From Escherichia coli O127:H6 str. E2348/69 (GTDB lineage: Bacteria > Pseudomonadota > Gammaproteobacteria > Enterobacterales > Enterobacteriaceae), in the NCBI RefSeq assembly GCF_000026545.1, contig NC_011601.1: 64,000 nt of DNA; one strand, given 5' to 3'. Below are positions 43,184 to 60,992 of the stretch, one piece after another. The notes under the pieces are model-generated. The model was not told the DNA's origin, ran no database searches, and saw only the letters and a list, made by a program, of their open reading frames with translations. A program made the position numbers and the translations under genes. Position 1 is the stretch's first letter. The number at the start of each line of letters is the position of its first letter.

Positions 43184-44147
43184 TAGGATTAAATCTCACC
43201 GCATCCTGCAAGTAATCCGGCGCAAGATGGGCATAAATCATCGTTGTCTGAATCTTTGCGTGCCCCAGAATTTTCTGGAGCGTCAGAATATTGCCGCCGT
43301 TCATCATGAAATGACTGGCGAAGGTGTGGCGCAGCGCATGAACAGCCTGGCCGTCAGGAACATCAGGTGCGACCGTTTTGATGACATCGCGAACCAATGG
43401 ATAATCCAGCGTCGGAAACACCAGTTTCCCGCCCCGTTTTTTGATCTTTTCAAACAGGCTTTCAGAAATAGGAACGGTACGGTTTTTGCTGTTCTTCGTT
43501 TTTGAAAAAGTGATTCGACAATGAAGAACACGGCGCTGCTCCAGTGCCGCTACCTCGCCCCATCGCGCCCCGGTCGACAGAAGGATTTCGACAGCCAGCC
43601 GTTCATCGGGATTTTCAGCCAGTGCATCCAGCAACTGAACACATTCAGACTTACTCAGATATCCCATTTCGCGCTCGTTAACCTTCATTCCTTTAAGGCC
43701 TTGAACGGGGTTATCGTTAAGAAAATGGCCGGATGAGATGAGTGCGGTAAACATCGCGCTTAACGCCCCAATCTCTCGATTAATGGTGCTGGGCTGTATC
43801 CCCTGCTCTATCCTGGACACACGTAGCTCGGTGAGCATCGTTGTATTAAGTTTATGCACACACGGGTCATCCATTGCCTCACTCAAGCGCAGCAATTTAA
43901 GGCGCGTGTTATGCCCTGACTTCATTAGCTGGCCGTGGTATTTCCACCACAAGTCAATAAGCACCGACAGCGGACGGCGATCAATGGAGTTTCCTTTCCA
44001 CTCATTGTTATGCTGTTGCGCCAGCACCCACCGCTCATATAAAACTGCATCCGATTTCGTTTTAAATTTTTTGCGAATGCGTTTGCCTTTACGCCCCTCA
44101 GGGCGCATGTCAAGAAGATACCCTCCCGGAATTGATTTTATGCTCAT
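43173..44147 (-). CDS. int: Tyrosine integrase (P2 Int-like)
   Basis: Strong similarity to P2 integrase (…EGRKGKRIRKKF…, …LSTGARWGE…, …HALRHTFASHFMMNGGNILTLQKILGH…MIYAH…); start taken at internal Met (MSIKSIPGGY) of the 374-aa ORF. Confidence 0.9.
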   Translation of the reverse strand: MSIKSIPGGYLLDMRPEGRKGKRIRKKFKTKSDAVLYERWVLAQQHNNEWKGNSIDRRPLSVLIDLWWKYHGQLMKSGHNTRLKLLRLSEAMDDPCVHKLNTTMLTELRVSRIEQGIQPSTINREIGALSAMFTALISSGHFLNDNPVQGLKGMKVNEREMGYLSKSECVQLLDALAENPDERLAVEILLSTGARWGEVAALEQRRVLHCRITFSKTKNSKNRTVPISESLFEKIKKRGGKLVFPTLDYPLVRDVIKTVAPDVPDGQAVHALRHTFASHFMMNGGNILTLQKILGHAKIQTTMIYAHLAPDYLQDAVRFNPIAG

Positions 44148-46940: not shown

Positions 46941-49763
46941 ATGACGGCAGAGTACATCAGGGACTGGCAACAACCGCGCCACGCAGTGGGGCGTGAAGGA
47001 ACGGGGATCCCCGCTCCTGAATCCGCGCTTTCCTCCTGGCTGGATGCCTACCGGGCAGAGAACGAGCACCGCCAGGAAATGGCTGATGCGGCGTTCTCCG
47101 CCACGCCGCTGGGCAACCTGATTAATAAAAGCCTGGACGCACAGGAAAAACAGGACAAAACCATCACACTGGCAGGAGACGCCAGAAAACAGGCACGCGG
47201 CGCGGTGGATGAAGCCATGGCCTCGCTGCGCCTGCTGCCGTCCTATCTGCGCGATCCGCTTATTCGCCACCTCTCCTTCCTGCGCAAAAAACAGGAAGCC
47301 GATCGTCAGAAAGGAAAAAACGCCAGGCAGGCAGAACGCTATGCGCGTGGGACCCTGCGCAAAATATTCGAACGTCTGGAGCGCACCGATCACCGCTGGC
47401 TGACACCGGGTTATCGCTCCCTTGCCGGACGCGAACGCCTGGACGATTTGCTTTACCTGCCGCAGCTCAACAAACACCAGATAAAGACGCTGGCAACCAT
47501 GACGGCGGCGATGTTCAGCAGCACCTTCGAAAAACTCTGCGATGGCTTTGGCGCGACCGATGGCGAGCTGACCATGGATGTAACCCTGAAGGCGTATCAG
47601 ATGCTGGCCCGCATGGCGTTACACCTGCACGCCATGCCTCCACATTATGACGCACTGACAACAGACAAAGACCGGAGGAACGAACCGGACACGGAGCTGC
47701 TGCCGGGCGCAATCCTTCGCCTGACCTGTGCGGAATGGTGGAAACGCAAACTGTGGCTGTTACGTTGCGAGTGGAGAGAAGAACAACTCCGCGCCGCCTG
47801 TCTGGTTTCCAGAAAAACATCGCCCTATCTGAGCCAGGACGCGTTAAGCGAGTTTCGCGCACAGCGCGAGAAAACACGCGATTTCCTGAAAAGTTTCATG
47901 CTGGAAAACGAAGACGGGTTCACGATTGATCTCGAGACAGTGTATTACGCGGGAGTAAGTAACCCGGTTCACCGTAAGGCAGAAATGATGGCCACCATGA
48001 AGGGACTGGAACTTCTGGCCGAAGCCCGTGGCGACAGAGCGGTGTTTCTGACTGTCACCTGCCCGTCAAAATACCACGCAACAACGGAGAACGGTCATCC
48101 GAACCCCAAATGGAACGGGGCCACCATGCGCGACTCCAGCGATTACCTGGTTAACACGTTTTTTGCGGCGGTCCGCAAAAAACTGAACCGCGACGGCCTG
48201 CGCTGGTATGGCATCCGCACGGTGGAGCCTCACCATGACGGCACCGTGCACTGGCATATGATGGTCTTTGCTCATCCGGAAGAAATCGACAGCATCGTGA
48301 CCATCACCCGCGATATTGCCATTCAGGAAGACCGCCACGAGCTGGGCAATGATATTACTCCGCGCTTTAAGGTGGAGTACGTCGACGGCACCAAAGGCAC
48401 GCCAACCAGCTACATCGCCACCTACATCGGAAAAAACCTGGACAGCCGCGCCGTGGATGGCATCGACCCGAAAACGGGCAAACCACGCGTTGACCACGAA
48501 ACCGGAAAATCAATGGCCGAGAGCGTGGAGCGCGCCATCGGTTGGGCACGCCTTCACCGGGTCCGCCAGTTCCAGTTCTTTGGCATCCCCTCCCGTCAGG
48601 TGTGGCGTGAACTCCGCCGCCTTGCCAGCCAGATGGCACGCAACCCGGAAGGCCCGCAACGGCTGAAGGATGACGCAATGGATGCGGTACTCGCTGCCGC
48701 TGATGCCGGATGTTTTGCCACCTACATAGAGAAACAGGGCGGTGTACTTGTTCCACGCAAAGACTACCTGATTCGCACCGCCTACGACCTCGCCGATGAG
48801 CTGAACGATTACGGCGAACAGAGTGTACAGATTTACGGGATCTGGTCACCACTCATCGGGGAATCCTCCCGTGTGTGCACGCACCCGGATAACTGGAAGC
48901 TGGTAAGACGTAAACCGGAACAGGAAGGCAGCGCCCACGAAAATGGTTTTGACCTTCAGGGCGGCCCTGCCGCCCCTTGGACTCGTGGCAATAACTGTCC
49001 CCGTGTACAGGAAACGGACAACAACGGGACAGAACAGCCGGAAGAACGGCCAGCACCGTGGCCGCAGCTCCCTGACGGCGTTGAAGTGAACGAATGGGTG
49101 CGCTCACTGAAACGGCACGAACGCCGGGCGCTGATGCGTTCGCTTCGTGACAAACAGGCAAAAAACAGCAGTGATGAAATGCAGAGCTGGACACAGAGCC
49201 GCAAACAGCAGCGGCCTTTGCCTGATAACCACGAATTACTCGCTAAAGAATGGCGGGAGTCTGCTGAATCTCTCGGCCTGCATATCGGTGAACAGCAGAT
49301 GCAGCACCTGTTACGGGGCGGCAGCCTGTACGTTGACGGCAGCATCATTGCACCGCAGGGATATGAAATTGTACGTAAACCGGATACCCGCCCGGACAGC
49401 CGAATCACGCAGCTCTGGCAACGCCTGAGCCGTAACCACGGCGTAAGCAGCACGGAGATCCGCCATAACCCGGTCGCCAGCTATCTGGAACAACTAGGGG
49501 CATCAGACCCTGAAGCCGCCGCACGCCTGGCATCCACACTTCAGCAAGACCAGAACACCATGAAAACACCCGTTACCGTACTTTCTGACATGCTGCGCGC
49601 CATCCGCGACGCAGAGCACGAACAGAGAATCAGTGAAACAACTGAACGCGCCCGCCGCAAAGCAGACCTGCTGCGGGGTGGCCTGACCAGTGGAAACAAA
49701 AAACAGACAAAAACGGGATTCACAAATCCCGTAAATGAGCAAAAAACGCGCCGCGATATATGA
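46941..49763 (+). CDS. A: Rolling-circle replication initiator (P2 gpA-like HUH endonuclease), 940 aa
   Basis: HUH motif (GTVHWHMMVF) and Y-x3-Y active-site pair (YIATYIGKN) as in P2 A. Confidence 0.85.
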   Translation: MTAEYIRDWQQPRHAVGREGTGIPAPESALSSWLDAYRAENEHRQEMADAAFSATPLGNLINKSLDAQEKQDKTITLAGDARKQARGAVDEAMASLRLLPSYLRDPLIRHLSFLRKKQEADRQKGKNARQAERYARGTLRKIFERLERTDHRWLTPGYRSLAGRERLDDLLYLPQLNKHQIKTLATMTAAMFSSTFEKLCDGFGATDGELTMDVTLKAYQMLARMALHLHAMPPHYDALTTDKDRRNEPDTELLPGAILRLTCAEWWKRKLWLLRCEWREEQLRAACLVSRKTSPYLSQDALSEFRAQREKTRDFLKSFMLENEDGFTIDLETVYYAGVSNPVHRKAEMMATMKGLELLAEARGDRAVFLTVTCPSKYHATTENGHPNPKWNGATMRDSSDYLVNTFFAAVRKKLNRDGLRWYGIRTVEPHHDGTVHWHMMVFAHPEEIDSIVTITRDIAIQEDRHELGNDITPRFKVEYVDGTKGTPTSYIATYIGKNLDSRAVDGIDPKTGKPRVDHETGKSMAESVERAIGWARLHRVRQFQFFGIPSRQVWRELRRLASQMARNPEGPQRLKDDAMDAVLAAADAGCFATYIEKQGGVLVPRKDYLIRTAYDLADELNDYGEQSVQIYGIWSPLIGESSRVCTHPDNWKLVRRKPEQEGSAHENGFDLQGGPAAPWTRGNNCPRVQETDNNGTEQPEERPAPWPQLPDGVEVNEWVRSLKRHERRALMRSLRDKQAKNSSDEMQSWTQSRKQQRPLPDNHELLAKEWRESAESLGLHIGEQQMQHLLRGGSLYVDGSIIAPQGYEIVRKPDTRPDSRITQLWQRLSRNHGVSSTEIRHNPVASYLEQLGASDPEAAARLASTLQQDQNTMKTPVTVLSDMLRAIRDAEHEQRISETTERARRKADLLRGGLTSGNKKQTKTGFTNPVNEQKTRRDI

Positions 49764-49808
49764 AGCGCGCACAAAACAGGCGAAAACGGGATTTAAAAAT
49801 CCTGTAAC
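49710..49808. repeat. Two ~27-bp near-identical interrupted palindromes (aaaacgggattNANAAATCCNGTAA), candidate parC-like centromere or ori element
   Basis: Copy 1 at ~49710-49736 (inside the 3' end of A), copy 2 at ~49782-49808 (32 bp upstream of parM start). Confidence 0.45.
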
Positions 49809-49839
49809 CGATTAATTAATCAACATAAGGAAAAGCGAC

Positions 49840-50799
49840 ATGAAAATTTGTATCGACGACGGCTCCACCAACATCAAGCTGGCATGGACTGAGAACGGCG
49901 AACACCGCAACGCCATCAGCCCGAACAGCTTCAAGTCGGAATGGTCTGCGCCGTTCGGTGGCACGCAGCCCGCGAACTACATGCTTGATGGCGTGCGCTA
50001 TGGTTTTGATCCGGTCAGCGATCGCTTTGTCCAGACGACCGACACGCAATACCAGTACAGCGATGTGAATGTCATTGCCATTCATCATGCGCTGGTCAAA
50101 TCAGGCATCACGCCACAGGAGGTGGATGTGGTTGTCACCCTGCCACTGAGCGAGTATTTCGACACAAACGCACAGCCGGACATGGCCAACATCAACCGCA
50201 AAAAAGCGAACGTTATGCGCCCGGTGGAGTACCAAAACGGCGAGGCATTCACTATCCGTAACGTGCGGGTTATGCCTGAATCCATTCCGGCTGGCTTTAA
50301 AGCACTGGCTGACATGAGTCCGTTTGAATCCCTGCTGATTGTGGATTTGGGCGGAACCACGCTGGATGTGGCAAAGGTTCAGGGGCAACTGGCAGGTATC
50401 AGCCAGGTGTTTTGCGATCCACACGTAGGCGTTTCTCTGATGGCCGATGCCGTGCTGTCGGTGATGGCCACCAACGGTATGCGCACCAGTCACCACATCG
50501 CCAATACCATTATCGAACATCGCCACGATGAAGCCTGGCTGCGCCAGCACATCCACAATGACGCGCATTACGCCAGCCTGATGGCAGTTATTCGTGAAAA
50601 GGAGGAAACACTGAAACAACGCGTGATCCGCGCGCTGGCGGTTTTTTCGGGTTACGGGCGGGTGATGGTTGTCGGTGGAGGGGCGGAGATTGTGGCACCC
50701 GCTATCCGCGAAGCCTGCGGAGTTAATGCGACTTTCATCGCGGACGGGGTGCCACAGTTTGCTCTGGTTAATGGGCTGTACGCAATGGACAAGGAGTAA
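49840..50799 (+). CDS. parM: ParM/StbA-like actin-type partition ATPase
   Basis: IDDGSTNIKL...ISPNSFK...YSDVNVIAIHHAL...RKKANV...VMPESIPAG...DLGGTTLD...VVGGGAE closely parallels plasmid R1 ParM. Confidence 0.85.
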   Translation: MKICIDDGSTNIKLAWTENGEHRNAISPNSFKSEWSAPFGGTQPANYMLDGVRYGFDPVSDRFVQTTDTQYQYSDVNVIAIHHALVKSGITPQEVDVVVTLPLSEYFDTNAQPDMANINRKKANVMRPVEYQNGEAFTIRNVRVMPESIPAGFKALADMSPFESLLIVDLGGTTLDVAKVQGQLAGISQVFCDPHVGVSLMADAVLSVMATNGMRTSHHIANTIIEHRHDEAWLRQHIHNDAHYASLMAVIREKEETLKQRVIRALAVFSGYGRVMVVGGGAEIVAPAIREACGVNATFIADGVPQFALVNGLYAMDKE

Positions 50800-50803
50800 A
50801 CCA

Positions 50804-51115
50804 ATGACGACTCCAACCAGACGGATAAGTTTCTATCTGAAGCCCACCGCCGTCAAGAACGAAGGAGAAGCATGCGCCTGGCTGGACAGCCTTACACCAG
50901 AAGCCCGCAAAAGCGGCCAACGCGTGGCTTTTCTGGCCGGGCTGGCACTTCTGAAAATGAATCCGGCAGAGGCTTACCGACTGGCTGCATGGGCTGATGA
51001 TGAGGTGTTATCAGTGACACAAACCAAGACAGAACGCCCCGCGTCACAGCCAGTATCAACCGCACAGATAACCAGTCAGATGGCCGGAAATATCCGGGCG
51101 TTATTTCCTGAATAA
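50804..51115 (+). CDS. parR: ParR-like centromere-binding adaptor
   Basis: RRISFYLKP...WLDSLTPEARKSGQRVAFLAGLAL...RALFPE parallels R1 ParR (RTIAFKLNP...TLDSIP..RS..RAALTAGLAL...SLFPKE); internal-Met start. Confidence 0.7.
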   Translation: MTTPTRRISFYLKPTAVKNEGEACAWLDSLTPEARKSGQRVAFLAGLALLKMNPAEAYRLAAWADDEVLSVTQTKTERPASQPVSTAQITSQMAGNIRALFPE

Positions 51116-51493
51116 CATCAGGGCGTATTCGCCCTGCCACCAATCCCATAACATAAAGAACGGGGTGCAAATCACTATACACCCCGTTCCAATACAAACC
51201 ATCAGAAGATCTACACATCTTTCTCAAATGGCCAAGTAATCGAGCTGGTTCAGGAATAAGCATGCTGCCAACACAAGTGAAGGAGATAAAACTGTAGAAC
51301 TGATCAATCGTTGGAAACAAGTATTGACAGTATGTTCGAGTAACCCAACTGGATAGATTTTATGCTGATTATCCATACAGTAAAAAAGTAAGGATACTCT
51401 TTGAATTACGCCAGCAAGAGTGGTAACATTAGTCAATGATTTTCATTAATGTAGTTACCAGCTTACACAAGCTGATGTTTTATTGGGGGTTTT

Positions 51494-52576
51494 ATGGTAA
51501 ACGTGAGGGAGGATGAACTTTTCAAACTCATCGAGCAAGGCATCAAAGGCAACGCAAATGCATTTACACTCCTATGCAGAAAGATGATTAACAACATCCG
51601 TAAAAATGATGAGGCTTTAGCTTCTAAGCTGGCTTCGTTAGTTGCTGAGGGAACAGTATTACGTGGGGCATCTAGTAAGGCTCCTATGCCTGTGGATGGA
51701 GACTCCAGACGAAACCTTTTGCAGGAAACATCTGTCAACGCAATTGTTGAAGAACCTGTATGGAATACGGATATCTCAAAGAAGCTGGAGTCAATTGTTA
51801 ACGAAAGAGAGAATGCGGTTTCTTTGTTCAAAGCTGGTCTTGAACCTGTGAAGACGGTTTTACTTTCTGGCCCGCCAGGCGTAGGCAAAACAATGTCCGC
51901 ACATTGGCTTGCTGCAAAGTTAAATTTACCTCTTTTAACATTGGATCTCTCATCTGTAATGAGTTCTCTTTTGGGAAAAACAGGTAATAATATTAAATCC
52001 GTTATGGATTATGCCAAAGAGAAACCATGTGTCCTTTTGCTTGATGAATTTGATGCTGTTGCAAAAAGACGTGATGATGACAGGGACGTTGGAGAATTAA
52101 AACGTTTAGTTACTGTACTCCTACAGACCATAGATGAGTGGCCAGCGACCTCGCTTCTTGTTGCTGCGACTAATCACCCTGATATCTTAGATCCGGCTGT
52201 TTGGCGTCGATTTGAGCACATCCTTAAATTTAATATGCCATCAGTAGAACTGATAGATAGATATTTAGTCAATCATAATATTGAACCTGAACTATCTAAA
52301 AAACTTGCACCATTATTAGATGGCATGTCCTTTGCCATCATTAACCGTATTTTGAATTTCTCCAAAAAGAATGAGGTACTTAGAAATATTCCATTTGAAA
52401 GCTCATTAATAGAAGCCGTAATTACGGAGAGGGTTTCATTGGATGAGTTTAGCGATAATGATCTCAATATAATTAAATATCATTTTGACGGTTTTTCAAA
52501 TAGGAAGATAGCTGAATTAGTTGGTGTTTCACATCCAACAATCGCGAATAAATTACAAAAGTGGGGGATTAAATGA
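51494..52576 (+). CDS. Classic-clade AAA+ ATPase with C-terminal LuxR/GerE-like HTH (360 aa); candidate defence component
   Basis: Walker A GPPGVGKT (aa 126-133), Walker B LLLDEFD (aa 181-187), sensor-1 ATN, second-region-of-homology-like DILDPAVWRRFEH; C-terminal NRKIAELVGVSHPTIANKLQKWGI HTH. Confidence 0.85.
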   Translation: MVNVREDELFKLIEQGIKGNANAFTLLCRKMINNIRKNDEALASKLASLVAEGTVLRGASSKAPMPVDGDSRRNLLQETSVNAIVEEPVWNTDISKKLESIVNERENAVSLFKAGLEPVKTVLLSGPPGVGKTMSAHWLAAKLNLPLLTLDLSSVMSSLLGKTGNNIKSVMDYAKEKPCVLLLDEFDAVAKRRDDDRDVGELKRLVTVLLQTIDEWPATSLLVAATNHPDILDPAVWRRFEHILKFNMPSVELIDRYLVNHNIEPELSKKLAPLLDGMSFAIINRILNFSKKNEVLRNIPFESSLIEAVITERVSLDEFSDNDLNIIKYHFDGFSNRKIAELVGVSHPTIANKLQKWGIK

Positions 52577-54777
52577 TGGAAAGGAACTTACTTTTAGGTA
52601 ACGGTCATGTTCTGACAAAAAAGGAACCTTTGCCTAAAGGAAGGGATGGTAAGCGCTATCCCTATACTCTTGAAGAAGTAAGGGAGCATTTAAACCCAGA
52701 GATTGATACTTTACTCTCACGCTTTCGCAGTTTGGATGATGCGGCTAAGCCAAGGGGGGAGAGTGTATTCAATTTAACTTTACACCCAGCGTTTTTGGGT
52801 AAAAGCTACTTTCCGGAAGGATTGCTTAGAGCGACAGGTTTACGGGATGTCGGCAGCCGTCAGGTAATCATTCGCCCACGGAAAGCGGCACGTCAGTGCG
52901 ATCAGAATAAGGACTTAGTAACGGCGCAACTGTTTGTTAGCGGTGATGATGATGCCGTTATAAGATTTAAGGAAATTTTAAATTCCCCTACAGCTCCGAA
53001 GGGCGTACAAAAGGATTTGATCGAAATTGAAAGTGTTAGCTTTTTTGAAGGAAAAGAGAGAGCACGCAATTTTGAGCATGCGAAAAGTGATTTGATAAAA
53101 TTTGAAGTGGTTCTTCATGCTGGGGTTGAAGACGATGATATCGTTAAAGCCTATATTAGCTATGCGGCACAATATGATGTCTCTGTTGATTACAAAAGTA
53201 GAATCCAAGTTGGTGGGCTGACTTTCATCGTTGCACACGCGCGACCTGAAGATATGAAAAAAACACTCGATTTTTCATTAATCCGCGTTGTGCGGCCGAT
53301 GCCGTCTCTCAGGTGTACTCAGCCGAACATTGTCAGAAAGTTATCTAATATAGTTACACCGGAGCTCCCTAATTCTAAAGCTGTTCTTGAATCCGAACGT
53401 ATTGCCATTTTTGATGGTGGCTTGGGGACAGCTGACTTGAGTAATTGGGTTACGGAATACGTGTATCCAGACACCAAAGAAACAAGCGGATTATTATTGC
53501 AGCACGGTAATGAAGTGACATCCACTTTCTTATTCGGACGTGTCGAGGAAAATGCACCTTCTTTTAAAAGACCGTTTATGAATGTAGATCATTATAGAGT
53601 TCTTTCACCGACATCAGGTGACAATGGCAATTGGGATTTATTTGATGTCCTTAAGAAAATACAGTCCGTTCTTGATAGTGGTGACTATAAGTTCGCTAAT
53701 CTAAGTATTGGTCCTCATCTTCCAATTGGTGATGATGAGGTTCATGTATGGACTGCTGTTTTAGACCAAATCTGTGCTAAGCATGGGATATTACTTACTG
53801 TTGCTGTTGGGAATGATGGCAATGAGGACGGTGATGCAGCGAGAATACAACCTCCTTCCGATATGGTAAACGCGCTAGCGATTGGTGCTGCTGATCGTAG
53901 CGGTGAAAAATGGGGGCGGGCACCATATAGCTGTATTGGGCCAGGCAGAAGCCCCGGATTCGTTAAACCTGATGGTGTTATTTTTGGTGGAAGCGACGAC
54001 GAGCCTTTTTACACTTACAACCCTCTGCTTGGTTCTATAGTTGGAGTTCAAGGAACCAGTTATGCCTCTCCATTAGCATTGAGAACGGCCGCTGGAGTTG
54101 CGGCTCTATCAGGAACTCCATTGAACACCATTGCATTGAAAGCGTTGCTTGTTCATCATGCTGAAACATCAAGAAAATATTCGCGTGAACATATCGGTTG
54201 GGGACGGTTTAGTGAGGATCCTAACGTTTTAATCGATTGTCCAAATGATACTGCTACAGTAATTTACTATGGTTCATTAGCAAAAAATAAATATTTAAGG
54301 GCACCGATCCCATTCCCTGATGTTCCCTTTGACGAAGCATTTGAGCTTACCGCTACTTTATGCATTCAAACCCCAGTAGATCCTGAACATTCAGTAAACT
54401 ATACAAGGGCCGGTATGCAGGTAACTTTCCGCCCAAGATTCGGCCTTGACGATACCGATACAGATGATTTCTTTGGTCAAAAAAGCCAGTATAAGACTGA
54501 AAGGGAGTGTAGGAGTGAAGGTCATAAGTGGGAAACTTGTTTGCACAGAAGCAAAAAGTTCAGTGCTGATACATTATTAAGCGATCCAGTTTTTGATATA
54601 CGGTATCATGCCCGAGATTCTTCGCGCCATGTTAAGGGAGTTTCAGCCCCTGATATGCAATATGCGATGGTAATAAGCGTAAGGGTAAAAGACTTTGATT
54701 TATATAATGTTATTCGCCAGCGATATACAATTCTGAATCCTATTCAACTGCGCACACAAATTTCTCTCGACACGTAA
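52573..54777 (+). CDS. Subtilisin-like (S8) serine peptidase, 734 aa, no signal peptide; candidate defence effector
   Basis: Catalytic order D-H-N-S: IAIFDGG (D281), HGNEVTS (H311), VAVGNDG (N414), GTSYASPLA (S496); ~270-aa N-terminal and ~230-aa C-terminal regions unassigned; start overlaps ATPase stop (ATGA). Confidence 0.85.
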   Translation: MMERNLLLGNGHVLTKKEPLPKGRDGKRYPYTLEEVREHLNPEIDTLLSRFRSLDDAAKPRGESVFNLTLHPAFLGKSYFPEGLLRATGLRDVGSRQVIIRPRKAARQCDQNKDLVTAQLFVSGDDDAVIRFKEILNSPTAPKGVQKDLIEIESVSFFEGKERARNFEHAKSDLIKFEVVLHAGVEDDDIVKAYISYAAQYDVSVDYKSRIQVGGLTFIVAHARPEDMKKTLDFSLIRVVRPMPSLRCTQPNIVRKLSNIVTPELPNSKAVLESERIAIFDGGLGTADLSNWVTEYVYPDTKETSGLLLQHGNEVTSTFLFGRVEENAPSFKRPFMNVDHYRVLSPTSGDNGNWDLFDVLKKIQSVLDSGDYKFANLSIGPHLPIGDDEVHVWTAVLDQICAKHGILLTVAVGNDGNEDGDAARIQPPSDMVNALAIGAADRSGEKWGRAPYSCIGPGRSPGFVKPDGVIFGGSDDEPFYTYNPLLGSIVGVQGTSYASPLALRTAAGVAALSGTPLNTIALKALLVHHAETSRKYSREHIGWGRFSEDPNVLIDCPNDTATVIYYGSLAKNKYLRAPIPFPDVPFDEAFELTATLCIQTPVDPEHSVNYTRAGMQVTFRPRFGLDDTDTDDFFGQKSQYKTERECRSEGHKWETCLHRSKKFSADTLLSDPVFDIRYHARDSSRHVKGVSAPDMQYAMVISVRVKDFDLYNVIRQRYTILNPIQLRTQISLDT

Positions 54778-54784
54778 TTTTTAT

Positions 54785-54806
54785 GGCCGCGAAAGCGGCC
54801 TTTTTT
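54785..54806 (+). terminator. Rho-independent terminator after the peptidase gene
   Basis: ggccgc-gaaa-gcggcc hairpin followed by T6. Confidence 0.65.
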
Positions 54807-54953
54807 CTGTAATTTTTTTATGAATTTACATGCACGATAGTGCACAAATTTGCACAATTTTTTTGAACGAATTTTTGCCCTTCTGGCCCGCGTGGCGGCT
54901 GGATCCGTCAGGGATCCGTGCGTGCACAAAAAAACGCGCTTTTTCTGCGCGCA

Positions 54954-54972
54954 GGTGACGGGGGAACAGCCC
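54954..54972. other. Candidate cos (cohesive-end) site
   Basis: ggtgacgggggaacagc resembles the P2/186 cos core GGCG(A/T)GGCGGGGAAAGCA(C/T) and lies at the expected place upstream of the Q 3' end. Confidence 0.3.
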
Positions 54973-55281
54973 GCGTTTCAGGGGGTAAATAGCATCCCCT
55001 GAACGATGTCGCAGCGACACAACAGAATGGCTGTATTTCTCACGCTGAGCGTGAAAAAGACGTGAGGGCTTTTGATTTGATGGGGTGACAGATAAGGCCG
55101 TCAAAATCGCACTGAGGCGGCGAGAACATGCAGTCAACGCGGTGGGATTGCGTAAGAGCCTGACCGTCGATGATGGCGATAAGCTGGAAGACGTCGTGAA
55201 ATTATCTGATTGATACAGGAGCTGGAGAGTCGGGGCATAAATTTTTTATGCCCCGACGAAGCAGCAGACAAGCGAAGCGCG

Positions 55282-56328
55282 TCAGGATGTGGGCTGGGTG
55301 TCTAACAGTGCGTAAGGGTTAAAGCGGATCACCTCTTCGCCAAGCCAGTCATTGATGTGCTTCATAGCCTCCATAACGGGCATCAGCTCGTTAATTGCAT
55401 AAACCCGCGCGGCCTTCTCCACATCACCAAACGCACTTTTTTCGCCCGGCATCGCCCCCATCAGTTGCGGCGGAACGCGGTGCGCAGCCAGTACATCATC
55501 ACGGGATGCCGCCTTAACATTCATGAACTCATCCTTTGCGGTGATCTGCTGGAACGGCAAAATTTGCACCCCCTCTTTGCCCCCGTTGGGCGCATGAATG
55601 AGCACGTTTTTAAATGCACCACCACCACGCGCACCCTGTAACGTTTCTTTCAGGGAGTCCATGCTTTCGCGGTTTACCTGCGCTGCACCGATGTAGATGA
55701 TGCACCCGGCGTGGGATCCGTTGTCGTAGTACAGTTTTCTGAACATGTCCGCCGAATGAGAAAGGCTGGCCGAGAGTAATGCGCCAAGATATTCCGGCAT
55801 GCCGTAGATTTCCTGGTTAATATCCGGATTCATCAGGTGGCATACTTTGCCAGGGCGAAACTGAAACGCGTCCTTACCATCCTGCACATACCACCATGAT
55901 TCAAGATCGCTTCCGCGTCGCATGTATTTCGCCAGGGCGTGCCGTAATTTAAGCGGTTCGCCGAGCATATTGCTTCGAAGCTCAAGGAATGCATTACCGA
56001 ACACAAACCAGTCCAGCGCCAGCGCCGAGAAATCCTGCCGGGAAAGCAGCGGGTGCGGGATGTAGCAACCGAGTAATACATTGCGCTTAAAGTAAAGCGC
56101 AGACTGATGCCAGGACGTTTGCCGGGCTGCTCTTGCCAGACCGTACCAGTCCACCGGGGTTTCATACCACCGCCCGTTATCAGCACAGTACATATTGTCC
56201 AGCAGGTCATGCCCGGTCAGGCGATAAGGACCATCAAATGTGAATGCACTGAGCGATGATTCTTTCCTGAGCGCATCAGCGAGATCAATGCGTGAACTCA
56301 TGCGCACTTTTTTGTTTTTTCTGCTCAT
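55282..56328 (-). CDS. Q: Portal protein (P2 gpQ-like)
   Basis: 348-aa ORF, size and position as P2 Q, paired with P on minus strand. Confidence 0.88.
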   Translation of the reverse strand: MSRKNKKVRMSSRIDLADALRKESSLSAFTFDGPYRLTGHDLLDNMYCADNGRWYETPVDWYGLARAARQTSWHQSALYFKRNVLLGCYIPHPLLSRQDFSALALDWFVFGNAFLELRSNMLGEPLKLRHALAKYMRRGSDLESWWYVQDGKDAFQFRPGKVCHLMNPDINQEIYGMPEYLGALLSASLSHSADMFRKLYYDNGSHAGCIIYIGAAQVNRESMDSLKETLQGARGGGAFKNVLIHAPNGGKEGVQILPFQQITAKDEFMNVKAASRDDVLAAHRVPPQLMGAMPGEKSAFGDVEKAARVYAINELMPVMEAMKHINDWLGEEVIRFNPYALLDTQPTS

Positions 56329-58079
56329 CAGAACTCCATAACCGTGAAACGCTCGTTTTCTCCTTCGCCGCCAATCGGTTCGTTAATGACAGCAAGCATG
56401 GTTGCCCACGCAAGGTCGCCGTGGCTGATCCCCCTCGCGCGGTCCGTTTCGTAAGTGATAAAGCCGCCCGGTGTTTTCACCTTACGCACGGCGTTAAAGG
56501 CCGCGACCAGCTCGCGTTCGGCGCGATCGTATTCCCACCGCCCGGCACGCATTATGTGCAGCATTTTCAGTACCAGCGACCGTTTTGATGACAGCGTGAA
56601 GGTGTACGGAATAGCAGCAGGGAAAAACCGTTTCACTATCTGATAAACAGCCTCCCCGTTCCCGCCCGTCACATCAATGCCGATGTGTTCCACGTTGTAG
56701 CGATACGTGAACTCTTCAATGACTCTGGCCTGTTCTTCAAACTCCAGCCCTTGAACGCGTCGCGTCTCCACCGTTCGAAAACGGCCACCAGGAACAGCCG
56801 GAGGAACCACCACGGACACAGCGCCGCTGTCGCCGTTGCCACTACTGCCGTTTGCGTCATACCCAATCCATACCGGACGATTCCCCATCGGGCGGGGAGC
56901 AAAAGGTTTCCAGTCTTTCCAGTCGTCGTATCCGTCAACACCGCAGCCAATCAGGATATTCAGGTTAAATGCCGATTCCCCTTCGCGGACAAACTCACAC
57001 ATATAGAGATTGAGGAACTCGTCTTCGGTGTTTTCATCACGAATTTCGTCGATATCAGTGTGTTTCCAGCCGTGATTAACCACATCTTCCAGCGTGACAA
57101 TTTGCCGCCACGTCCGGTCAGGGCAGATAAGCCCGTTATGCAGCGTTTTCCAGTCCACAGAAAAACGCTGGCGTTTATGCGAGGCCTTTTTCTCATTCCA
57201 GCGGTCGCCGTTCCAGTAGGCGTATGCCTCGTGCGTTTCGGTGGATGGCGTGGAGAAGTAGGTGCGCCGCAGTCCGCTGAGGGTTGCCATAGCGCCAGCC
57301 ACCTTGCGCAGTTCAGCAAAGCGACTGACCCAGAAAAATTCATCAAAATAAAAATTGCCCGTATAGGACTGTGCCGACGCAGCAGAAGTGCCGAGAAAAT
57401 GCAGCTCTGCGCCGTTGGAGAGGATGATTTTATCGCCCCCTTTCAGCTCCACATCAACTTCAGCCGCGGCCTTCTGAATAATGCTTTTAAACTGGAACGC
57501 CTGACGACGCGACGCAGACAAAAAAATCTGGTTACGCTGGTAAGGTTGCGCCACATCGTCACGCAGCGCCATCAGCAGTGCTTCCTGTGCAAAATACCAG
57601 GTCGCCCCAATCTGTCGGGATTTCAGGATCATCCTGTTACGTATCCCGGCTTCCCTGCAAAGGGTCAGGGAGTCAAACCAGCCCCGCTGATGCCACTCCA
57701 GCCTGCTGATGATTTTTTCCCGCAGTGCGGCAATCTGTTCCGGCGTGAAATGATTTTTGAGTTTTTTCGCCCGGCCTTTCTTTCCTGCGGCCGTCGCATC
57801 CGGCTGGCCATCATGCAGCTTTTTAAGCTGCCGGGTCAGCAGGTCTATTTCCTTAAAGTCACCGCCTGTTTTATTCTGTTTTTCAGTAAGCTGGATGAGA
57901 CGCGCATCGATGGACTGCGTGACACGCTGCACGGGTGGCGTTTCATCCCACTGGTCACGTTTTTTCCACGCATAAATCGTGTTCGGGTTTATTCCCATCA
58001 GACGTGATATTTCTGCGGGCGGATAACCCTGCCAGTAAAGTTGCCGCGCACGCTGGCGCACAAAAGCGTCCTGAATCAT
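56328..58079 (-). CDS. P: Terminase large (ATPase) subunit (P2 gpP-like)
   Basis: 583-aa ORF; Q/P divergent from O N M L as in P2. Confidence 0.88.
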   Translation of the reverse strand: MIQDAFVRQRARQLYWQGYPPAEISRLMGINPNTIYAWKKRDQWDETPPVQRVTQSIDARLIQLTEKQNKTGGDFKEIDLLTRQLKKLHDGQPDATAAGKKGRAKKLKNHFTPEQIAALREKIISRLEWHQRGWFDSLTLCREAGIRNRMILKSRQIGATWYFAQEALLMALRDDVAQPYQRNQIFLSASRRQAFQFKSIIQKAAAEVDVELKGGDKIILSNGAELHFLGTSAASAQSYTGNFYFDEFFWVSRFAELRKVAGAMATLSGLRRTYFSTPSTETHEAYAYWNGDRWNEKKASHKRQRFSVDWKTLHNGLICPDRTWRQIVTLEDVVNHGWKHTDIDEIRDENTEDEFLNLYMCEFVREGESAFNLNILIGCGVDGYDDWKDWKPFAPRPMGNRPVWIGYDANGSSGNGDSGAVSVVVPPAVPGGRFRTVETRRVQGLEFEEQARVIEEFTYRYNVEHIGIDVTGGNGEAVYQIVKRFFPAAIPYTFTLSSKRSLVLKMLHIMRAGRWEYDRAERELVAAFNAVRKVKTPGGFITYETDRARGISHGDLAWATMLAVINEPIGGEGENERFTVMEF

Positions 58080-60191: not shown

Positions 60192-60992
60192 ATGATTACT
60201 CCTGCACAGCAACACTGGCAGAACGTGATGGCACAGCGCGCAGGCCGGGCGAATGAAGGCGTGGACCACGCCGCGCGTACCGCGCATGAAGAGGTGCTGT
60301 ATCGTCTGCGTCTGGCACAGGCCCGGCTTAAGGGCGTACAGGCCAGAAGCGCGAAAGCCGCCATCAAAAAAGAGTTGTTGCCGGATTTTTCCGGCTGGAT
60401 TGAGGGAACGCTGGAGGCTGACGGCGGGCAGCAGGATGAAGTGATTGCCACGCTGATGGTGTGGGCGATTGACTGTGGCGATCTTCCGCTGGCGTTGCGT
60501 ATTGGTGCGTATGTGGTCCGTCACAACCTCATCATGCCGGATAACTTTGGCCGTACTGCTGCCACGGTACTGACCGAAGAAATCTGTAATCCGGTACTGA
60601 CGCAGGCCGGGACGGATGCCGACGCGGATTTGTCCGCCTTTATCGAACCACTGGACACCCTCCGGGAGATTGTCACCGACCAGGACATGCCGGACGAAGT
60701 GCGCGCCAAATTATGCAAAGCGTGCGCCTTTGCCCGCCGTGGCCTGAGTGATGCGGACAGCATGGCCCTGTCACTGAAGCTGCTGCGCGAAGCAATGCAC
60801 CTGAACCCGAACGCAGGTGTGAAACGCGAGATTGCAACCCTTTCCCGCGCCCTGAAAAAAGCCGATTCCGCAGCCGCACCAGAAGATGCCAGCACACCGC
60901 AGGCGCAGGACGAAAGCAGCAAAAGTAAAAAGACAACGCGGAAGCCTGCAACACGAAAAACCACCGCGACGCAGAAGGCGAAGCGCGGTTAA
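60192..60992 (+). CDS. M: Terminase small/endonuclease subunit (P2 gpM-like)
   Basis: Contains MPDEVRAKL motif shared with P2 M. Confidence 0.85.
   Translation: MITPAQQHWQNVMAQRAGRANEGVDHAARTAHEEVLYRLRLAQARLKGVQARSAKAAIKKELLPDFSGWIEGTLEADGGQQDEVIATLMVWAIDCGDLPLALRIGAYVVRHNLIMPDNFGRTAATVLTEEICNPVLTQAGTDADADLSAFIEPLDTLREIVTDQDMPDEVRAKLCKACAFARRGLSDADSMALSLKLLREAMHLNPNAGVKREIATLSRALKKADSAAAPEDASTPQAQDESSKSKKTTRKPATRKTTATQKAKRG

Follow-up and report, generated by a model that had tools for sequence, protein, structure and literature searches.

A predicted cos packaging site of a P88-like, P2-family prophage beside the defence-gene hotspot of Escherichia coli E2348/69

Phages of the P2 family carry a variable cargo hotspot between gpA and gpQ, and in the P88-like prophage of Escherichia coli E2348/69 a non-coding gap separates this cargo from the portal gene Q. 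What does this gap contain, and where in it would the phage genome be cut for packaging? We analysed a stretch of 64,000 nucleotides from contig NC_011601.1 (hereafter the window), in which the 504 bases from 54778 to 55281 are 100% identical to the chromosomes of E. coli E2348/69, the host, and of other O127:H6 strains. Of the 5,426 complete E. coli genomes, about 1,130-1,140 have a copy with at least 90% identity, most copies being 95-99% identical, and among phage records the region matches P88 and other Xuanwuvirus (Peduoviridae) genomes with 92-95% identity. The RefSeq annotation of the locus lists, in order, an integrase, a replication endonuclease, ParM, a partition protein, an AAA ATPase and an S8 peptidase, then the gap, and then Q, P, O, N and M; as judged from the list of open reading frames and from RefSeq, the order of cargo, gap, Q and P (both on the minus strand), O, N and M is the same as in P2. 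The portal gene Q (55282-56328, minus strand; 348 aa; phage portal protein in RefSeq) encodes a protein 47% identical to P2 gpQ, the large terminase subunit P (56328-58079, minus strand; 583 aa; the enzyme expected to nick cos) is 44% identical to P2 gpP, and the annotated small terminase subunit gpM (60192-60992, plus strand; 266 aa) is 36% identical to its P2 counterpart.

The stretch from 54810 to 55281, which a first-pass annotation made from the letters alone had flagged as a cos-like packaging region, is non-coding. Its largest open reading frame (55085-55213, 42 aa, a hypothetical protein in NC_049391) is open in 16 of 17 relatives and was rejected as a gene: its variable sites are distributed 10/14/10 with no codon-position bias, and it is probably not one. 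The gap has the variable gpA-to-gpQ hotspot on one side and the 3' end of Q on the other, which is where a cos site of the Peduoviridae is expected, and the same holds in P2, 186 and P4, in which cos also lies between variable cargo and the 3' end of Q with a defence hotspot directly beside it. The P2 hotspot between gpA and gpQ, abutting cos, has been described by Rousset et al. (PMC9122126). The flagged site had been placed upstream of Q; this is incorrect, as Q is read from the minus strand and the site lies beyond its 3' end.

We conclude, with a probability of roughly 80%, that 54831-54990 is the cos packaging site of this P88-like (Xuanwuvirus) prophage of the P2 family. The observations behind this reading are the position of the segment, the pattern of its conservation, the likeness of its architecture to cos sites whose cuts are mapped, and the presence of the module in a satellite-like element. 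Very probably it is the expected P2-family cos in a divergent, Xuanwuvirus-type version with predicted cut positions, the presence of cos beside the P2 hotspot being already established. The identification of the stretch as a packaging site in the first-pass annotation is thus upheld by location, core and flanking architecture, and the motifs it had listed (TGCAC repeats, a tandem GGATCCGT, a GCGCGC palindrome and a core) are all present, but the module is confined to about 54831-54990 within the longer stretch that had been flagged.

The predicted cohesive-end core, GGTGACGGGGGAACAGCCC, occupies 54954-54972 on the plus strand. The motif ggtgacgggggaacagc lies at 54954-54970 and GGTGACGGGGGAACAGC likewise begins at 54954, and the 19-mer AGGTGACGGGGGAACAGCC occurs once in the window. 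Aligned without gaps to the P2 end GGCGAGGCGGGGAAAGCAC, the G-rich core matches at 13 of 19 positions; 54954 is one of 11 positions in the window (128 kb of strand) that score at least 13/19 against the P2 core. Variants at the same site in related loci bridge part of the distance, one of them (GGTGACGGGGGGAAAGCCC) reaching 15/19 against P2 and another (GGCGACGAGGGAAGGGCGC) being also present, and the 3' half of the core is variable between genera. A search of the literature for the core sequence returned unrelated papers only.

To the left of the core, TGCAC starts at 54831, 54841, 54851 and 54923, that is at -123, -113, -103 and -31 relative to the core start at 54954. The first three copies, direct repeats of the form TGCAC(A/G)A, follow one another at intervals of 10 nt and are succeeded by a T-run (54831-54866, plus strand); the block forms the left border of the cos module and closes the cargo slot on the right, and we propose it as the recognition block of the terminase subunit gpM. 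The fourth copy, with its run of seven A (54923-54934, plus strand), is the counterpart of TGCATTAAAA, with which the conserved cos region (55 bp) of P2 and P4 opens; over 90% of 107 unique family sequences keep this repeat and its A-run. Counting both strands, the 64 kb contain TGCACAA 10 times, three of them within 54841-54929. One related locus has the exact offsets -121/-111/-101/-29, and among loci the spacing between the fourth repeat and the core ranges from 29 to 32 nt, so that the nick cannot be assigned to a single nucleotide. On this basis we predict nicks at 54952-54954 in the top strand and near 54972/54973 in the bottom strand, the exact positions (uncertain by about 3 nt) and the length of the overhang being deduced from the sequence.

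P2 and 186 have annotated 19-nt cohesive ends, and P4 has the ends of P2. In these three genomes TGCAT starts at -123 or -124, -111, -101 and -29 from the annotated cut, so the TGCAY architecture of the window agrees with theirs to within 2 nt: three phased repeats stand 100-125 nt left of the cut, and a fourth with an A-run stands about 30 nt left of it, with a short hairpin between. In P2, 55 bp separate the start of the fourth TGCAT from a point 7 nt past the overhang. Both the 19-nt 5' cohesive ends and the 55 bp of cos conserved in P2 and P4 go back to Ziermann and Calendar (1990), as cited in PMC3931495 and PMC9122126. When both strands of the window were scanned for the TGCAY offsets of P2, 186 and P4 with a tolerance of 2 nt, a single match was obtained, anchored at 54952-54954, while any match at all appeared in 1 of 600 shuffled strands, a figure to be read with the proviso that the degenerate Y was picked once both families had been seen. 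The repeats and the core exceed chance.

Several features set the window apart from the mapped sites. Its repeats are all TGCAC(AA), whereas those of P2, 186 and P4 are TGCAT; six of 19 core positions differ from P2; the first and second repeats are 10 nt apart instead of 12-13 nt; GCGCGC lies to the left of the core in the window and to its right in P2, 186 and P4; the distance from the core to the Q stop is about 310 nt, compared with about 170 nt in P2; and the identity of the terminase proteins to their P2 counterparts is only 36-44%. Since the same change, T to C followed by AA, is found in all four repeats, we read it as co-evolution with one DNA-binding protein, and gpM, with only 36% identity to P2 gpM, would be the obvious candidate for the protein that reads them.

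A likeness to the P2 and 186 cos had been claimed for the region, and it holds for the core (13/19, ungapped) and for the layout of the repeats but not at the level of a profile search. An nhmmer profile of the P2, 186 and P4 cos regions found no match at the site at a cut-off of E = 100, and the reverse profile reached the P4 junction only at E = 1.1, against a background that was biased because the junction loci had been selected by the core 14-mer. Homology at the sequence level is therefore not demonstrable by these searches, and the case is built on architecture together with the intermediates. Other divergent cores of the P2 family have likewise been assigned via similarity to P2: the cos of Smp131 was deduced by analogy to P2 (PMC3931495), and the Salmonella phages SEN4 and SEN5 were reported to have sticky ends ggcgaggcgggggaacgag (PMC5261728); these cores have the stretch GGGGGAAC in common with the window core. 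In SEN4, SEN5 and Smp131 the 5' half of the core is of the P2 type, GGCGAGGCGG, and that of the window core is GGTGACGG. A related IMG/VR locus (L126) bearing the core GGTGACGGGGGG has a right flank homologous to the one beside the SEN5 core. The cos of lambda (cosQ-cosN-cosB, with R-sites for gpNu1) follows the same logic, a nicking site beside repeated binding sites for the small subunit, but there is no sequence relationship, its overhang is 12 nt long, and its repeats lie on the side that is packaged first, whereas in the window, P2 and P4 nearly all of the conserved sequence lies on the cargo side, at the right end of the genome. The P2 terminase reportedly acts on monomeric circles.

The pattern of conservation among relatives marks the same elements. 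In P88-like phages with a different cargo, similarity to the window starts exactly at 54831 and everything further left is unrelated; more distant genera retain only about 54831-54990; and Klebsiella phages match 54942-54975 only, the core being the most conserved segment in the Klebsiella and Enterobacter relatives. Compared with the Novemvirus T5282H, identity is 98% in the cargo and 100% in the three-repeat block (54831-54866), falls to 58% in the spacer that holds the GGATCCGT tandem, rises to 92% in the fourth TGCAC with its A-run, drops to 30% in the left arm of the palindrome, recovers to 89% in the core segment (54945-54972), and is 37-39% to the right of 54972 (39% in 54973-54990). 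An earlier scan of IMG/VR with the 14-mer GCAGGTGACGGGGG had returned mostly chance matches and needed filtering by blastn; as loci picked by the 14-mer are biased for judging the conservation of the core, the scan was redone with the repeat block as an independent anchor. Among the 117 IMG/VR loci retrieved by the repeat block alone, with the core unused, 113 have a GGTGAC-type (or GGCGAC) core 113-115 nt downstream of the block, and 109 have the exact 19-mer of the window. This pattern indicates that the repeats and the core are the constrained elements.

The module also fixes one side of the cargo slot. The variable slot extends from about 51116 to 54830, its right edge being the first TGCAC. 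The site had been said to delimit the cargo on the right, which is correct in substance, with the edge itself at 54830/54831, 123 nt to the left of the predicted cut. The present cargo (51494-54777) is an IetAS defence system composed of the AAA ATPase IetA (E = 4e-89) and the S8 protease IetS (E = 7e-41), and it ends in an intrinsic terminator found by a terminator scan (54785-54806, plus strand; GGCCGC-GAAA-GCGGCC followed by a T-run; fold -8.7 kcal/mol, z = -3.5), which is common only to relatives with the same cargo and belongs to the cargo and not to cos. A match to the Rfam family Histone3 on the minus strand of this terminator hairpin (54760-54805) scored 32 bits, below the gathering score of 34 bits, and was dismissed as chance. 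Among P88-like relatives the left breaks fall mostly at 51108-51157, after the ParM and partition genes, and some at 49647-49889, and similarity is rejoined on the right at 54824-54832, except for one locus (L125) at 54804; because the left boundaries differ, the ParM module is itself optional cargo. The same IetAS module is present in the same slot of the Enterobacter phage phiT5282H (Novemvirus) with 98% identity, and high identity stops at about 54866. That the cargo of a Xuanwuvirus and a Novemvirus is 98% identical, with identity falling right after the repeat block, suggests an exchange of cargo between genera, and such exchanges may use the invariant repeats as their homology arm on the right. 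The site thereby sets the right edge of a known defence-gene hotspot in the reference EPEC strain, and the predicted ends of the packaged genome are useful for delimiting cargo, for cos-based transduction tools and for the choice of nucleotide 1 in Xuanwuvirus genomes. This cos type is found in about 1,140 of the 5,426 complete E. coli genomes, so that a recognition and cut site, once defined, would offer a practical way to mark such prophages and any satellites dependent on them.

The remaining motifs of the flagged stretch are of a different kind. Between the repeat block and the fourth repeat lies a variable spacer (54867-54922), which holds an imperfect dyad, GCCCGCGTGGCGGC (54886-54899), and the two copies of the tandem GGATCCGT (54901-54908 and 54912-54919). 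The tandem is kept only within Xuanwuvirus, and other genera and the satellite copy keep the sequence of neither dyad nor tandem; at the equivalent place, 186 and P4 have another dyad. The GC palindrome CGCGC-N7-GCGCG (54935-54952, arms at 54935-39 and 54947-51) is terminator-like when read on the minus strand, and its fold (-6.5 kcal/mol) is unexceptional taken alone, given z = -1.0. P2, 186 and P4 have a hairpin at the equivalent position; the palindrome is nevertheless probably not essential, as its left arm is not kept in T5282H (30%) or in the satellite. Of the repeats, tandem and palindrome that had been listed for the region, the TGCAC repeats correspond to TGCAT in P2, 186 and P4, while tandem and palindrome are lineage-specific and not conserved cos elements. 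A direct repeat, GCCCGCGT, with copies at 54886 and 54969, is not kept in relatives and is probably due to chance.

To the right of the core, the flank GCGTTTCAGGGGGTAAAT (54973-54990, plus strand) is common to the satellite-like element and supplies the left arm of a hairpin at 54977-55003 (fold -8.3 kcal/mol, z = -3.4); this hairpin and another at 55033-55061 are specific to Xuanwuvirus, and 54991-55228 as a whole is spacer sequence specific to the lineage. A perfect inverted repeat of 13 bp (55229-55257; fold -15.1 kcal/mol, z = -8.8) lies 25 nt past the Q stop and is likely to be the counterpart of the P2 tQ terminator of the P-Q operon, tQ being annotated at the analogous place in P2. In several relatives (L030, L091, L104, L117 and phage vB_EcoM-569R5) about 620 bp are inserted between the cos-to-Q spacer and the portal stop (window equivalent 55288-55307), and the portal gene there lies 958 nt from the core as against 335 nt otherwise.

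Further evidence comes from a satellite-like element. It is 12.7 kb long, lies beside hpt in E. coli 600468 (L136, 134-12637), and is 90-94% identical to an entire IMG contig (L089). Its genes encode two integrases (the first P4-type, the second P2-type), an HTH regulator, an Icd-like protein, a primase of 889 aa, a zinc finger resembling ogr/Delta, a protein of 236 aa and a PemK/MazE pair, and it carries a Xuanwuvirus-type cos. It also encodes a P2-family major capsid protein of 423 aa, with 36% identity to gpN of the window; no portal, terminase, sid or psu gene was found in it. The DNA it has in common with the prophage is chiefly 54831-54990 (79.5% identity), and this is the sole homology in non-coding DNA; the satellite copy has the core and each of the four TGCAC repeats intact, and the homology between phage and satellite stops at about 54990. 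The other DNA matches are both genic, one in the integrase (168 nt at 76%; window 43186-43352) and a weak one of 133 nt in the capsid gene. A cos module common to a phage and a satellite-like element recalls P2 and P4, for which cos is the sole homologous region (PMC9122126).

We infer that the element leads the life of a satellite. Its right-hand segment of 2.8 kb, from ogr/Delta to the capsid gene, is present in 57 of the 5,426 complete E. coli genomes, and no description of a capsid-encoding P4-like satellite was found in the literature searched; this element, with the same cos type, is the more interesting by-product of the analysis. As a speculation that we would not bet on, the four TGCAY repeats, changed in concert, might act as an address of the lineage, TGCAT in Peduovirus, Eganvirus and P4 as opposed to TGCACAA in Xuanwuvirus and Novemvirus, which together with the divergent core might define separate groups of packaging specificity; the TGCAC group would then have a so far undescribed satellite of its own, present in 57 of 5,426 genomes, in which a P4-type integrase, a primase and an ogr/Delta-like gene are combined with a P2-family major capsid protein in place of sid and psu.

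If 54831-54990 is the cos, packaging could proceed as follows. The terminase, made of gpM (60192-60992) and gpP (56328-58079), would recognise the TGCAC repeats, three of them helically phased 103-123 nt to the left of the cut and one 31 nt to its left, and would place staggered nicks around GGTGACGGGGGAACAGCCC (54954-54972), leaving 5' overhangs of about 19 nt like those of P2, 186 and P4. Nicks at the core would put the IetAS cargo at the extreme right end of the packaged linear DNA, and Q and P at its left end. The site might, of course, be a genuine cos and yet a silent relic of a defective prophage, never cut in E2348/69, and the window, which covers only part of the prophage, leaves some room for this. 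We consider it unlikely, because P88-like phages that form plaques or have been isolated (P88, vB_EcoM-569R5 and PhiR44_2 among the isolates) have a core region 100% identical to this one, Q, P, O, N and M are intact open reading frames annotated by RefSeq without pseudogene flags, and constraint on the site is visible in about 1,140 E. coli genomes, most of whose copies are 95-99% identical.

Whether the cut falls at the core can also be asked of phage records that might preserve physical ends. No mapping of virion ends for P88-like phages was found in the accessible literature, and the P88 paper makes no mention of cos. Two assemblies, Chuche (PP925824; 7 nt missing) and P88_4B11 (P884B11; 5 nt missing), show multi-nucleotide indels relative to the window only inside 54962-54975, and such a deletion is found in none of 116 prophage-type loci. 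Sister assemblies of the P88_4B11 project behave similarly at the mapped P2 cos: P2_4C9 (LR595883) lacks 10 nt of the cohesive end, and the record of P2_2H1 starts at position 9 of the overhang, directly after an adapter. We take the deletions as indirect evidence, by analogy, for physical DNA ends within the predicted overhang; they could instead be real variation in length, and Chuche and P88_4B11 only appear to be virion-derived. In two further phage records, 503458 and 500465-2, the indels amount to single-nucleotide differences in homopolymers and are uninformative.

The same records bear on another possibility, that the cos module is here but is cut elsewhere, at GCGTGGCGG (54890-54898) or near 54876. 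GCGTGGCGG is a 9-nt exact match to the 186 cohesive end GGCGTGGCGGGG, and the P88_4B11 record (LR595891) starts at the window equivalent of 54876, 78 nt to the left of the core, while sister records of the project start at the P2 cos or at most 20 nt away. Nucleotide 1 of LR595891, however, was chosen by its authors from reference genomes after removal of end repeats, and its sequence is an exact circular permutation that has lost nothing at this point, so that we rejected this start as a physical end. Moreover, the segment with GCGTGGCGG and 54876 is the least conserved part of the module (58% to T5282H) and differs in the satellite, and the TGCAY geometry puts the cut at 54952-54954 and not at 54890-54898 or 54876; we hold a cut there to be about as unlikely as a silent relic. 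An assembly branch point at k = 77 in SPAdes, considered as the source of the offset of 77-78 nt, was discarded, as the assemblies used k up to 127 and nucleotide 1 was author-chosen, and the start of one locus (L093), 4 nt from that of P884B11, proved to be merely a storage-chunk boundary and no contig end.

Least probable of all is that the gap is only a transcriptional boundary, made of the terminators of cargo and Q and of repeats bound by a regulator, with cos elsewhere in the prophage: terminator-like hairpins do stand at 54785-54806, 54934-54952 (minus strand) and 55229-55257, and the old/tin transcript starts of P2 are close to its TGCAT repeats, but the repeats hold their position relative to the mapped cuts of P2, 186 and P4 no matter which way the genes beside them point, an element with other neighbours and without Q and P has kept the module, the geometry is found at no other site in the 64 kb, and a promoter scan of 54600-55400 gave no promoter-like site.

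In the course of the record comparison we noticed that an Illumina Nextera adapter is present in the RefSeq record NC_049386.1 (Peduovirus P22H1; L129 1-31, L132 244-263) and also in NC_049385.1 (P22H4). The adapter sequences stand at the ends of the P22H1 and P22H4 records, GTCGGCAGCGTCAGATGTGTATAAGAGACAG at one end and CTGTCTCTTATACACATCTGAC at the other, and an annotated CDS begins inside the adapter.
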